A DNA stretch of 63,625 nucleotides, the filler included, from Rhabdomonas costata (lineage: Eukaryota): the NCBI GenBank assembly GCA_019059605.1. It is 35 parts of 35 records of this genome, joined end to end, with 100 filler letters (N's around TTAATTAATTAA, not from the genome) between each part and the next. Parts side by side here need not be neighbours in the genome. Positions count along the whole stretch, not along the records: positions 40,073 to 41,793 come from JAHMHO010010088.1; 34 more parts are not named here. One strand, given 5' to 3'. Positions within the stretch are counted from its first letter, which is position 1, and each line of letters starts with the position of its first letter. A model generated the notes under the pieces. That model was not told where the DNA came from, did no database searches, and was given only the letters and a program-made list of their open reading frames with translations. Below are positions 36,173 to 41,981 of the stretch, piece by piece. The position numbers and the translations under genes were made by a program.

Positions 36173-36705
36173 GCGACGCGGTTCGCGTGCTTTTGCGTGT
36201 GCATGTGTTTGTGCGTGCGTTCGCACGGTTTGATTCTTTAAGTGCGAAAGGGCTGGGAGACCAAAACCATTCAGGGCTCATCCTCAATCCGCGGAAACGA
36301 ACACAGGAAAGTATAGGGGACCACACAGCANNNNNNNNNNNNNNNNNNNNNNNNNNNNNNNNNNNNNNNNNNNNTTAATTAATTAANNNNNNNNNNNNNN
36401 NNNNNNNNNNNNNNNNNNNNNNNNNNNNNNTTTTGGTGGGGAGTCAAGCCTAGAGTATTGTCCCCAGCTCCTCTGTAATTTACTGGCTTCTCTCACTAGC
36501 CCCCAGAGCTCAATACTCTAGGCTTGACTCTCCAGCAAAACATTTGCTATGAATGCATCCACTCACAAAACAACAGCTGCTGTTATTGCTACTTGTGTGG
36601 ATGCTTGCACTGCAGAGAGTTCTAGGTGTGCAGCTCGTGCTCATGAACCGCGTTTATCCCAGAGCACACGGAAAAGAGCAGCTGAGAAGAAACAGCGAAA
36701 CGAAC

Positions 36706-37726
36706 CTGAGAGCGCCGCCCCCATTGCGGTCTCCAGCTGGTACACCGCCGGGTTGTTGGGGTCCCTGGGGTCTACGGTCTTCTCATTGCGCATCACAGGC
36801 AGCGGCAGGCACCCTCCACCCTTCACCAGGGCCTGTCGCAGCGTGTCCAGCCGGAACCACAGGTTGTTGGTGTTGAAGAACCGATGTCTGTTGGCGCGCA
36901 TAGGCCCAGTGCCCAGCAGAATCGATGAAATCGATGAAGAAGATTGAGGTGAGCGAGTGCACAGCGAGTTCTTGTGCGTATGAGCACGGGAAGCCAATGA
37001 CAACCGCAGGAGCTTTTGCATTCTCTTGGATGATGCGACCTTTCGGATTGCAGGGATCGGGATTTGCCAGGATATAGTGGAGTACGAAGGAACGCGGCTA
37101 TTTAGTGCAGAGCAGGCCAAATAAAACGAAGGAAAAGAGCCCCCCTTCGCTTACGTTAGTTCCTCAGGGTCACAGAACCATGAAAAGGGCTACTACAGCT
37201 CTTTTCACCCAACGAAACGTTGAGCCTTCACTACGCAGTTGTGACGAGCAAACGAGCAAAGTCATGGCACACGTTGTTCGGCCTAAATAGAGGAGTGGAC
37301 TGGGGGTTCATGCGGTTCTTGCTCAAGGCGCTGCAGGAAATCTTGCAACCAGCAGAATATACAATATAAGCCACGAGTTCGCTGGAGTGCACGAAAGAGC
37401 CGCCATAAGACTGGGGACACGTGAGGCAGCGGGGGTTGAAATAATGTCGAGGAATGCGTGTTACAATATCAATAGGGCAATCTGTTTTACCCAGAACCCG
37501 AAACCCCGCTGTGGATGTGGTTGCTTTGGCCTTTCTTTTTGCATGTGAAGGGAAAACCGAGGGATAGGTCAGAACCGCACAAATAAGAGGTGTGCCTGTG
37601 GATGTCTTGGAAGGCGGGAAGGTCGGTCGGGGGGCACTGGGCGAGCTCCCGGAGAAGCAGCTCGTGGGAGGCGGCGCGGCGGGCCAGGTGGCCCCCTTTG
37701 CGGTGAGTGGGGCCCCGGGGGCAGGC
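36706..37726 (-). CDS. UGP: UTP--glucose-1-phosphate uridylyltransferase (UGPase), two exons, partial
   Basis: Exons 37596-37726 and 36706-36887: RKGGHLAR..LLLRELAQCP..FQDIHR|HRFFNTNNLW..LPLPVMRNEKTVDP..VYQLETAMGAA. These are hallmark UGPase motifs in their trypanosomatid-like form. Confidence 0.96.
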
Positions 37727-38375
37727 CTGCAGAAGCATCGGCGCCCCGCTGCGGGCAAAGTACGTCAGAACCTTCAGCTCTAGAGTGGCCCCTGAGGAGA
37801 GAGTGAAGCTTGTATGCATTTTCGGGTGGCGCATACCAGGTAAATCACCCACACGGTTACCCACTAGCTGTCGCTCTTCTGCGTTAGGAGCACACACCCA
37901 CACGCACATTTGGCAAGGATGAATTTCTTCTGGGGAGAACTCGAGGTCCACTGCCCCCCTGGGCTCGCACCTTTCGATGGGACATGGGCCCATCGGGCCT
38001 CGCACCCTTTTTGGACCATGGTACCTTGTCCCGCTGTCTTGTCACGTAGGGTTGACTTACTCCATGTGATTCCCAATCCACATTAGTGTACGCGGGGCCT
38101 TGGGAACCCCGATTGGCGCGTTTAGAGATCTCTTGATGAGTACCCAACCACNNNNNNNNNNNNNNNNNNNNNNNNNNNNNNNNNNNNNNNNNNNNTTAAT
38201 TAATTAANNNNNNNNNNNNNNNNNNNNNNNNNNNNNNNNNNNNNNNNNNNNGCACTGATGCTGCGATTGAGGTGGATTAGAGGTGGAGAGAGAGAGAGAG
38301 AGAGAGGGAAAGAAAGTGGTGTGCGTCCGTTCCAAGTTTTTTCCTTCGATTGTAATGGTGGCTCTCTCCCCCCAG

Positions 38376-39315: not shown

Positions 39316-40407
39316 CCCTCCACTTGCCTTTTGTCGTTGGGGTGTGACTCAGTCTCACGGTCCTTCGTTTGGACTGGACTGTAGAAAGTTCATGGCCTCA
39401 CGAGCTTTAAGCGAGCCGGGGGCTTGCTTTCTCCTGCACTACTCCGGACAACCTATTACGCTGCTTTCCTGAGAGTCAGCAATATGATCGGTCGGCTGGA
39501 ATTCGAAGGCCTGGAGAGAGATTTTGTGTCGTTTGTACGGTCGCTCGTACTCGACATTCGGGGAAAAGTACACAAATGTCTCTTTGCAGGTACCTGGGCG
39601 CTTTCTTCGGATTTCTTGCGCTTTGTTCTTGTGCTTTGAATCCGAACCTGAAGAGTTCCCTTGAGCTTGGAAAGGTGTTCTGTGAGAGTAACACTTCGGT
39701 CATTAATGGAGGGCACTGGCATGGCCCTAACCGCCGGAAACGGGAGTGGTGGGACCTCCCCTGGAGCTGCTCAAGCTCTGGCCCGGCCTGCGTTCTCGCA
39801 GACCCTGCTTAAGTACAGTCATCCGATTCCCTTGGCTGACTGCCCACCCCACTTGGTAAGTGTGTATCGCGAAAGGAAATTTGTAATGCTGAGCATAAAA
39901 ATAAAAAATGAAAATACGCAGGGTTGGCCACTTTTTTTTACCTTTGTAGAAAAAACGTATAAAAAACACAACNNNNNNNNNNNNNNNNNNNNNNNNNNNN
40001 NNNNNNNNNNNNNNNNTTAATTAATTAANNNNNNNNNNNNNNNNNNNNNNNNNNNNNNNNNNNNNNNNNNNNGGGTTTTGGTGTACGAGGGATGGAGGTC
40101 ATTCAGCCTGGACCATTACAGGGTTTCTCGTGGGTCTCCGAAAGTGAGTCACCAAATTATGCGCTGCCTGGTTGGCCTTATGTTCTGGCTCGGGAGTCTG
40201 ACCAGGATCCCCCTATGCGTAGCACCACTGTCAGTTCCCATTTCTTCTCTGATGCCGATTGCTCACCCTCAGCTGTTGGAAATCTCTATGGCTTTATCTT
40301 CCTCCTTTGCGAACACGATCGCTCTCTTATACCCGTTGGGTTTTCAATATCCTGTGCCTTTGCCCATGTCCACTCTTTCCTCTGTTCCCTTTCCCAACAT
40401 CCTTTGA

Positions 40408-41789
40408 ATGAAGCCCGTGGCACTTGCTGGGGTGCTGGTGGTGTGGGCGCTATCGTGTACCCCCTTCCCCGCGCGGGCGCTGCCCTCGGCCCTGCGCGCT
40501 GGGTTCGTGTATGACGCTGCGACCAACGACATGGCGTGGACCTGGTACTGCCCTGCCAGTCGTCCCCCGTTTCTCGCGCAGTCCAACCAAGCTCCTCCAA
40601 GAGTCACCCCATCCTAAGTCTTTCTTTTTCGTTTTTTTAGAGTGACTCCCGCTCGCGAGGTCCAAATGCAATCTGCGTGGGTGATCTTTGCGATGTGCTG
40701 GAACACGAAAGTTGCACGTATGCAGCTTTGAATGCTCCAAGTGTATGTAATCAACGCTGTGAGTTTGGCCATGCCAACGCTTTCTAACATACCAATGGCA
40801 TTTGATGCGAGTTCCCAACAACTCGTTTTTGCCCATGCTGAGTGACTTTTTCACACACGTAAACACGTGTTCTCCATTCGGCTTGTCACTCAGGCGTCTC
40901 TCTTTGCTCTCACATGAACATTTCTGGAAAGGAAGAAGAGGTGGAGAGGTGGGCACTGTGCGCTGTAAACACACAGCTGCTTGCTTTTTTTCTCGCCTGC
41001 GGTCCTCCAGCAAGGTCACTCGATGCTGGTATTCTAGGCTTTCCATTCATTCCCCCTCAGATTCATCTGAAGCGCGGCATCTCATGCGTCGATTTCCTTC
41101 ACCACCTCCATCAGTCTCACCTCCGTTTCCCTGATTGGTCTTTTTGGAAACAGGAAGCACAACCAGGGCGTGGTGCAGATGCACACTGACCTGCAAGCAA
41201 TGTTCCCTGCCCTGCAGATCGCGACGGCGTACAAGGAGAATGTCCCGGACCCAGGGCCCTGCGACCCCATCTTCGCCACGTGGGCTTCCCAGGTCTGCCC
41301 TTGCATTCACAAGGCTTTCCAAACCAACCGTTCAAGAAGCTCAGCATCGCCAGCCCTTGTTTATAAATTCTTAGCGATGGAAGTCTACCAAACTTGCAGC
41401 CAGGTCTCCAAGTCTTTTCAGGAACTCTCCATCGTCGAAGCCAGAACGTAAACGCTGAAAGCCTGTTTACAAGCAGGAGATGAAGAGTTGGACAACCGGC
41501 AATGCTTCCTTTGGGTGCACCCGGTGCCCCCGCCATTCTTCAGGGCTATGACCTGGTCGTGGGCTGCAGCTTTGGCTACCAGGACTGCATGATCAGCGTG
41601 GCTGCGCAGTATCCTAACACGATGTTTCTGCACATCTCGGGGTGGAAAACCCCCACCCCAAACTTCGGAGTTGGCTACGCCCGGCTGTATCAGCCAATGT
41701 ACTTGGCTGGCTACACGGCGGCCCTGGTCTCGCAGACGGGGGTGCTCGGGGTGCTGGGTCCTGTGCCCGTCCCCGAGACGTACCGCCAG
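40408..41789 (+). CDS. Signal-peptide protein with a BMP/PnrA-family solute-binding domain (three exons, 3' truncated)
   Basis: Exons 40408-40544, 41154-41292 and 41544-41789 are in phase: MKPVALAGVLVVWALSCTPFPARA-LPSALRAGFVYDAATNDMAWTWKHNQG..YKENVP..WASQGYDLVVGCSFGYQD..VAAQYPNTMFLHISG..NFGVGYARLYQPMYLAGYTAALVSQTGVLGVLGPVPVPE. Confidence 0.88.
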
Positions 41790-41981
41790 GTGCNNNNNNN
41801 NNNNNNNNNNNNNNNNNNNNNNNNNNNNNNNNNNNNNTTAATTAATTAANNNNNNNNNNNNNNNNNNNNNNNNNNNNNNNNNNNNNNNNNNNNTTTTTTT
41901 TGTCTGCTGTTGCTTCGATGCTGCACTTGGGACTCCGCTTTTGTTGGAGCATACGGATGGGTCGTTTCCAAGCACGCTCAG

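Follow-up and report, generated by a model that had tools for sequence, protein, structure and literature searches.

A spliced euglenid gene with a Bmp domain, probably of the purine-base-binding branch, and its probable place among single-pass receptors with a cyclase-fold module

The fold of bacterial binding proteins underlies several known families of receptors, including the G-protein-coupled receptors (GPCRs) of class C, the natriuretic-peptide receptors and the receptor cyclases of trypanosomes. The trypanosome proteins (ESAG4/GRESAG4) are single-pass proteins that combine an extracellular domain of periplasmic-binding-protein fold, presumably from a family other than Bmp, with a cytoplasmic class III cyclase, and to our knowledge the ligands of protist receptor cyclases are still unknown. 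In the Bmp family, AtzT sandwiches guanine between Tyr45 and Trp194, and Ser97, the Phe98 backbone, Glu165, Asn218 and Asn220 complete the pocket; its dissociation constants are about 110 nM for guanine and 2.5 µM for adenine, and the related structure 3S99 was modelled with adenine (PMC6834077). Bmp ectodomains on class C GPCRs have also been published, from Dictyostelium (13 Grl proteins), from Allomyces and more widely (PMC1885808, PMC3251606, PMC3971589). Here we analyse a 63,625-base stretch of DNA from the Rhabdomonas costata assembly GCA_019059605.1 (the window), in which one contig carries the 5′ part of a euglenid nuclear gene. Its product carries part of a binding domain of the Bmp/PnrA type, probably two-lobed like that of its paralogue, and this domain most likely belongs to the purine-base-binding branch represented by AtzT and 3S99. 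An earlier note, made from the DNA sequence alone, had taken the gene for a horizontally acquired bacterial domain that was reused as the ectodomain of a receptor, perhaps a nucleoside- or purine-sensing cyclase or kinase.

The window is not one genomic stretch. It comprises 35 pieces of 1,707-1,727 bases each, in roughly descending order of length, which are linked by 34 copies of TTAATTAATTAA, each flanked by N runs (N-TTAATTAATTAA-N stop-linkers), and any feature crossing such a linker is an artefact. Because the contig with the Bmp gene is bounded by linkers, the neighbouring window sequence provides no genomic context for it. The contig and the parts of the gene are:

40073-41793, no strand assigned: contig with the Bmp gene, 1,721 bases, with linkers on both sides
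40405-40407, plus strand: in-frame TGA directly 5′ of the ATG at 40408
40408-40544, plus strand: exon 1, 137 nt, with the start codon, the signal-peptide-like N-terminus and the first Bmp strand and loop (GFVY..NDMAWTW)
40408-40479, plus strand: signal-peptide-like segment, about residues 1-24, cleavage after ARA judged by eye
40537-40539, plus strand: codon of Trp44, in exon 1
40545-41153, plus strand: intron 1, 609 nt, gt..ag, phase 2, 50% G+C
41154-41292, plus strand: exon 2, 139 nt, reading KHNQG...ENVPDPGPCDPIFATWASQ, 80% identical to P0001 residues 47-92
41293-41543, plus strand: intron 2, 251 nt, gt..ag, phase 0, 51% G+C
41544-41793, plus strand: exon 3, 250 nt, still open at the contig end (N run)
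41568-41573, plus strand: codons of pocket residues Ser101 and Phe102, in exon 3
41775-41777, plus strand: codon of pocket residue Glu170, in exon 3

Splicing of these exons gives a product of 175 residues, all 175 codons being open, in which a start resembling a signal peptide leads into the first half of a Bmp/PnrA domain. Besides the ARA motif, the N-terminus shows a hydrophobic stretch of 11 residues from residue 4 (Kyte-Doolittle mean 2.6), and the exons have a G+C content of 63-69%, with 83% at third codon positions (GC3), against about 50% in the introns and the 5′ flank. When exon 3 was compared with longer proteins (147-2000 residues, by a word index that short fragments could escape), four matches were obtained, three of which are named RCo051988, RCo051984 and RCo051993 (82-84% identity; the RCo proteins, P0001-P0003 below). 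Two of these proteins align with the spliced peptide over residues 1-175, gapless across both junctions and with 132/175 residues identical (75%), and the third aligns at 74% identity over 150 residues; tblastn with the relatives sets the three coding pieces at the same exon borders. According to the report on this organism, RCo identifiers denote proteins predicted from the Rhabdomonas costata transcriptome, and no gene prediction was made on the genome (PMC8219788). Because the alignment is gapless across both junctions, these mRNA-derived relatives lack exactly the two intervening stretches, and the two introns mark the gene as nuclear. It either adds a fourth paralogue to the three Rhabdomonas costata transcripts or represents, in a related euglenid, the gene that corresponds to them. 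The three in-phase GT-AG exons, the signal-peptide-like start and the BMP motifs that the earlier note had listed are all present, with exon borders supported by the RCo alignment. Two details of that note needed correction: the motif list is right overall, with the amendment that the first junction reads NDMAWTWKHNQG, which places three residues rather than two between AW and HNQG, and the contig runs on for 4 bases past its feature end (41789), to 41793. Its use of the introns as a sign of domestication holds as far as they show a nuclear gene; introns do not date the transfer.

The assignment to the Bmp family rests on several comparisons. Exon 3 alone matches Pfam Bmp (PF02608) over profile positions 60-138 of 301 with an E-value of 2.5e-14 and 53.4 bits, the cut-off being 24.1. 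This match bears out the profile check that had been proposed for this gene; the exon 1 piece alone gave no Pfam Bmp match. The spliced 175 residues match a Bmp profile made from 40 of the matches with an E-value of 3.2e-48 (positions 40-184 of 375), and the RCo paralogues score 97-100 bits against Pfam Bmp. Together with the RCo alignment and the intron borders, the Pfam match sustains the claim that a spliced eukaryotic gene encodes a Bmp domain behind a secretory start. Among entries of the PDB, P0001 is closest to 3S99 (phmmer, E 1.2e-38) and then to AtzT (6PI5, E 1.3e-37), and its matches to PnrA, BmpD and Med-type entries are far weaker. This is in line with an AlphaFold (AF2) model of P0003 (70 aligned sequences, pLDDT 95, pTM 0.90), in which the two-lobed type I periplasmic-binding-protein fold is seen; the window encodes about the first half of its own domain. 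In Foldseek the model matches AtzT with a TM-score of 0.91-0.92 (root-mean-square deviation 2.1-2.3 Å) and 3S99 with 0.90, compared with 0.70-0.78 for the nucleoside-binding PnrA and BmpD.

An alignment with AtzT maps four of the pocket positions onto the visible part of the gene, and the window product has a counterpart at all four (Trp44, Ser101, Phe102 and Glu170), while the remaining three (AtzT 194, 218 and 220) fall beyond the contig end. The second pocket Trp (AtzT Trp194) is kept in the RCo paralogues. Since these pocket residues are shared with AtzT, our best guess from sequence is a purine base, or else a flat heterocycle resembling one, with a nucleoside as the less likely ligand. 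The ligand proposed earlier is thereby narrowed towards purine bases, as the closest solved relatives bind guanine and adenine. At the positions of AtzT Asn218 and Asn220, Arg and Ala are found in P0001 and P0003, and Glu and an alignment gap in P0002, and the Euglena-type family described below has lost most of the purine pocket; because of these changes the ligand may differ from that of AtzT.

What follows the Bmp domain can be seen in the relatives. A scan of representative sequences with exon 3 (1.84 billion searched) gave 923 matches at E ≤ 0.001, and Pfam architectures were counted for 30 long proteins among the best 150 of these. Guanylate_cyc lies behind Bmp in six of the 30, one of which (P0082) also has a kinase, and two further proteins have Pkinase and no cyclase, the kinase forms overall being P0024, P0054 and P0082. 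Four carry 7tm_3 (P0013, P0019, P0034 and P0048), none of them with an Ephrin_rec_like match; eight have a stalk, with or without one transmembrane helix, and no Pfam effector; seven consist of Bmp alone or of tandem Bmp; and three are other fusions. In the RCo proteins Bmp is followed by cysteine-rich repeats that match Ephrin_rec_like (Pfam, E 2e-9 to 4e-8 in P0001-P0003), with TNFR-like hits below the Pfam cut-off, and single-pass relatives have one strong hydrophobic segment after the stalk. NCD3G was rejected as a true domain of the RCo proteins (31.5-32.6 bits against a cut-off of 38.9, profile positions 28-54 only). We also observed that P0082 (1,082 residues) has, in order, Bmp, one transmembrane helix, a protein kinase and a cyclase, the arrangement known from animal receptor guanylyl cyclases apart from the Bmp ectodomain. 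The three other fusions join Bmp to PNP_UDP_1 (P0079), to a caspase-like Peptidase_C14 (P0130) and to tRNA_SAD plus DHHA1 (P0076), and the first of these partners, a purine/uridine nucleoside phosphorylase, fits a purine or nucleoside role of this Bmp branch.

The only Bmp-bearing match to P0001 of more than 820 residues is EG_transcript_1622 (880 residues; 37% identity over 82% of the query), the prefix EG_ being taken as Euglena gracilis, following PMC6776534. Its residues 431-880 match 17 further proteins, all in the EG_transcript or GGOE01 transcript sets, and 13 of the 18 listed proteins with this cytoplasmic part (query included), mostly 860-905 residues long, carry Bmp. Three of the 18 (P0224-P0226, about 1,080-1,097 residues) were seen to combine a PF12849 ectodomain (PBP_like_2, phosphate-binding type) with the same juxtamembrane motif and cyclase-fold tail; since both Bmp and PF12849 forms have this tail, the cytoplasmic module is common to receptors with different binding-protein ectodomains. 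The juxtamembrane motif, of about 70 residues (..QFSNDNVA.ECA.AIA..), is shared by the cytoplasmic tails of nearly all stalk-bearing forms. The nature of the Euglena-type cytoplasmic region was settled by a fold search, in which it is, as modelled, a class III cyclase fold. An AlphaFold (AF2) model of P0220, a natural 508-residue form that consists of stalk, transmembrane helix and tail, was built from 28 sequences with a mean pLDDT of 80 and values above 90 over residues 256-430. Its tail matched class III cyclases in Foldseek with E-values of 6e-11 to 1e-8 and target TM-scores of 0.7-0.82, including CyaB (3R5G, E 6e-11), Cya2, Rv1625c, rhodopsin-guanylyl cyclases and GC-A (9BCV, E 4.4e-9).

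The catalytic set of class III cyclases comprises a pair of metal-binding Asp residues, a Lys/Asp pair for the substrate, an Asn and an Arg. Compared with true cyclases, the Euglena-type domains keep the second metal Asp, the Lys is gone, the Asn is replaced by Pro and the first Asp is mostly gone, and this loss of catalytic residues leads us to read them as probable pseudo-cyclases. P0012, by comparison, has a Guanylate_cyc domain (Pfam, E 7.6e-23) with the full catalytic motif set, and the best PDB match of this domain is T. brucei GRESAG4.1 (1FX2, E 1.8e-30). Outside the euglenid clade (P0021, P0033, P0089, P0152, P0054 and P0024), the stretch that runs from the juxtamembrane motif to the kinase or the C-terminus also aligns with the cyclase-like domain, with the motifs GD..W/F and G..V, and the Bmp kinase receptors may, on this alignment, carry a degenerate cyclase domain ahead of the kinase.

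We placed the Bmp domain in two unrooted maximum-likelihood trees, one of 83 rows (LG+G4) and one of 66 rows (LG+C20 PMSF; the 83-row set minus 24 of its 57 solute-binding-protein rows, plus seven Euglena-type rows). In both, a branch with SH-aLRT 99 separates all receptor-type rows (26 and 33, respectively) from all rows that are solute-binding proteins only, the latter called bacterial solely from their lipoprotein-like N-termini. The solute-binding rows nearest to the receptor clade have such N-termini in the 83-row tree and are left unresolved in the 66-row tree, and the nearest rows retain the purine pocket in full. The window groups with the RCo proteins (99-100), and this group falls within an 18-row clade (100) that also holds the Euglena-type family, P0010, P0012, P0029, P0008 and P0071, and every full-length member of this 18-row clade has at least one transmembrane helix. 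The 7tm_3 rows form one clade (98-99) outside the stalk-bearing clade that holds the window, the window lying in its sister group in the 66-row tree, and the kinase forms fall in subclades other than the window's. Because the receptor-type rows form a single clade, the origin of the window's domain is shared with class C GPCR-, kinase- and cyclase-type receptors and is not a recent transfer. The simplest reading is that the receptor-type Bmp module arose once, long ago, from within the bacterial purine-binders, and that the transfer is old and shared rather than peculiar to the window's lineage, its direction, from bacteria to eukaryotes, being inferred. Horizontal acquisition, as the earlier note proposed it, is thus supported in a deep sense, by the receptor clade and by the bacterial-lipoprotein-like rows nearest to it, and not as a recent event in this lineage; the phylogeny it called for returned one receptor-type clade and no lineage-specific acquisition.

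We think it rather probable that the complete gene encodes a receptor with a Bmp ectodomain, a stalk, a single transmembrane helix and, most likely, a class III cyclase-fold module. The receptor role is partly supported: it is borne out for the family, by cyclase, kinase and 7tm_3 relatives and by the Euglena-type cyclase fold, and for the window's gene it is drawn from relatives, as the gene ends inside its Bmp domain; the receptor ectodomain proposed earlier stands for the family and is probable for this gene. A membrane-anchored form of the protein is likely, and a cyclase-fold effector in this particular gene is fairly likely. The full protein would be a type I membrane receptor in which a Bmp 'Venus flytrap' is joined, through an ephrin-receptor/TNFR-like cysteine-rich stalk and one helix, to a cytoplasmic signalling module. 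This module would most likely be a class III nucleotidyl-cyclase-fold domain, either able to catalyse, like that of the GRESAG4-like P0012, or catalytically degenerate, like those of the Euglena-type proteins. Two Trp residues would sandwich a small aromatic ligand (probably adenine, guanine or a heterocycle like them), which would close the two lobes, and the rigid stalk and the helix would pass lobe closure on to a dimeric cytoplasmic module, a mechanism suggested by analogy with the natriuretic-peptide receptor cyclases and class C GPCR ectodomains. That the gene further belongs to an undescribed, widespread class of single-pass receptors, in which a purine-binding Bmp domain and a stalk drive a cyclase, pseudo-cyclase or kinase, is a tentative extension that we consider doubtful.

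Several observations weigh against the receptor just described. The visible gene ends at residue 175, at the contig end, and tblastn of seven relatives against the whole window gave only noise outside the Bmp contig (E 0.15 and 0.85). No protein identical to the window product is among the four exon-3 matches, and expression of this copy is predicted only. The four closest relatives (P0001-P0003 and P0007) end before any membrane helix, as a soluble secreted form would, and P0008, from the same 18-row clade, has about six extra hydrophobic segments after the stalk (about seven in all) in place of a cyclase. Pfam found no cytoplasmic family in the whole Euglena-type proteins at E up to 1 and nothing in residues 601-880 of P0155 at E up to 10, and hhalign aligned the Euglena-type region with true cyclase domains in the right register (E 0.0086) at a probability of only 4.7%. 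To these are added the catalytic losses of the Euglena-type domains, the pocket changes noted above, and the fact that both trees come from quick searches.

The ending of the closest relatives is also what would be expected if the product were a secreted or membrane-tethered purine-binding protein without a signalling domain, serving nutrient capture at the cell surface of an osmotroph. P0001-P0003 and P0007 have no helix after the signal peptide and end within 8 alignment columns of each other, and the Euglena-type receptors have kept less of the pocket than the window and the RCo proteins. However, the RCo proteins break off midway through a Cys repeat, and in alignment A3 these four relatives end 2-24 residues before the transmembrane segment of seven full-length relatives. 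Moreover, the transcriptome behind the RCo proteins is fragmented, its median contig being 430 nt (PMC8219788), P0007 is cut at its N-terminus too, and at least one transmembrane helix is found in every full-length member of the 18-row clade, all of which makes a purely capturing protein rather unlikely. A receptor with some other effector, that is, a multi-pass form like P0008 with a possibly histidine-kinase-like tail, a kinase, or a Grl-like class C seven-transmembrane (7TM) protein, would account for P0008 and its extra segments within the window's own clade and for the kinase and 7tm_3 forms that exist among the relatives, and Bmp with 7TM is documented in Dictyostelium (PMC1885808). Against such a form, the 7tm_3 rows make up a separate clade outside the window's stalk-bearing one and lack Ephrin_rec_like matches in all four cases, the kinase forms lie in other subclades, and the RCo NCD3G matches are sub-threshold, and we regard it as unlikely. 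As a side observation, P0008 appears to be cut at its C-terminus, and its tail contains NHTLKNT, which we take to resemble the H-box of HisKA_2-type histidine kinases.

Whether this copy works at all is a separate question, to which the lack of an identical transcript-derived protein, the 75% identity to the nearest relatives and the incomplete gene on the contig lend some weight. An unexpressed or decaying family copy is nevertheless very unlikely, given that 175 of 175 codons are open, that the gt..ag borders are intact, that a GC3 of 83% contrasts with 50% G+C in the introns, and that all four visible pocket residues are kept; the identity search could have missed a short fragment within its stated scope, and the window may derive from another species than the transcripts. 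Bacterial contamination, or a recent transfer from bacteria specific to this lineage, is already contradicted and scarcely credible. The Bmp family is overwhelmingly bacterial, and the neighbours of P0001 in the ESM Atlas are bacterial or phage Bmp clusters only (score 0.84, to be taken as a lead only). Yet the gene has two introns of spliceosomal type with a contrast in composition between exons and introns, euglenid transcripts supply its nearest proteins, structural alignment shows 28% identity to the best solved bacterial relatives, and the receptor-type rows form one clade. In addition, a pattern scan with P0001 through the genomes of 185,579 prokaryote species, a method that sees close relatives only, gave four partial matches (31-43%), all from Lactobacillales. 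The single-pass receptor with a cyclase-fold module remains our preferred reading of the gene.

Elsewhere in the window, a Pfam scan of 82 open reading frames of at least 130 residues matched only two frames, both to UDPGP (UTP-glucose-1-phosphate uridylyltransferase) and both on the minus strand of one contig (36644-38041); they lie at 37490-38041 (profile positions 200-265) and 36644-37150 (profile positions 262-317) and represent another spliced gene. On the Bmp contig, Rfam gave no match at E up to 1. An antisense stop-to-stop frame of 198 codons (40453-41046, minus strand) lies opposite exon 1 and intron 1, has no Pfam match and is probably due to chance.

The window's gene is one more, incomplete, member of the Bmp receptor architecture, and its ectodomain is near enough to solved purine-binding proteins for the pocket to be read, which offers a concrete ligand hypothesis that could be tested with one expressed domain. 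If our reading is true, this would be the first receptor-cyclase lineage of the Euglenozoa with a ligand (adenine, guanine or a similar heterocycle) predictable from sequence. The same Bmp module is found on cyclase, pseudo-cyclase, kinase, kinase-plus-cyclase and 7TM outputs, with domains that share one origin, which makes a clear case of modular receptor evolution.

Compared with the described systems, the closest in fold are AtzT (6PI5/6PI6/6PII) and the Brucella 'basic membrane lipoprotein' 3S99, which belong to the same Pfam family as the window's product and its paralogues; where the window reaches the guanine pocket of AtzT, it keeps the aromatic sandwich together with Ser, Phe and Glu. 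In contrast to both, the window's gene is eukaryotic and spliced and has a signal peptide of eukaryotic type rather than a twin-arginine (TAT) or lipoprotein signal, and its paralogues add a cysteine-rich stalk and have changed the Asn218/Asn220 positions. The plain hydrophobic N-terminus and the spliced nuclear gene set it apart from the binding lipoproteins of bacterial ATP-binding cassette (ABC) transporters; at residue 17 a Cys follows A-L-S, a sequence that presumably does not fit a lipobox, and we know of no ABC transporter partner for a gene of this type. Similar to the Dictyostelium Grl and other 7tm_3 GPCRs, whose Bmp domain falls in the same receptor clade, the gene places Bmp behind a putative signal peptide, probably as an extracellular ligand-binding module. 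Unlike them, its branch has an ephrin-receptor/TNFR-like stalk and, where complete, one transmembrane helix and a cyclase-fold domain, and the sub-threshold NCD3G of its paralogues and the separation of its clade from the 7tm_3 clade speak against a place among the class C GPCRs with NCD3G.

Like ESAG4/GRESAG4, the family includes a cyclase domain, that of P0012, which is most like GRESAG4.1, whereas in the Euglena-type relatives this domain is degenerate. The natriuretic-peptide receptors of the GC-A type resemble the proposed family in combining a Venus-flytrap-type ectodomain with one transmembrane helix and a class III cyclase that forms dimers; the Foldseek matches of the Euglena-type tail include the GC-A cyclase domain, and P0082 has the same order of kinase and then cyclase. 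They differ in that the GC-A ectodomain is ANF_receptor and not Bmp, that it has no cysteine-rich stalk and that its ligands are peptides. In the Euglena genome paper, the cyclase families described carry BLUF or HAMP and Cache domains, and the main text does not mention BMP. Our literature search, which covered the main texts of part of the literature, returned papers on Bmp with 7TM and none on single-pass Bmp cyclase or kinase receptors. The combination of Bmp with 7TM being already published, we rate the single-pass Bmp cyclase or kinase architecture as a new variation on a known receptor plan.

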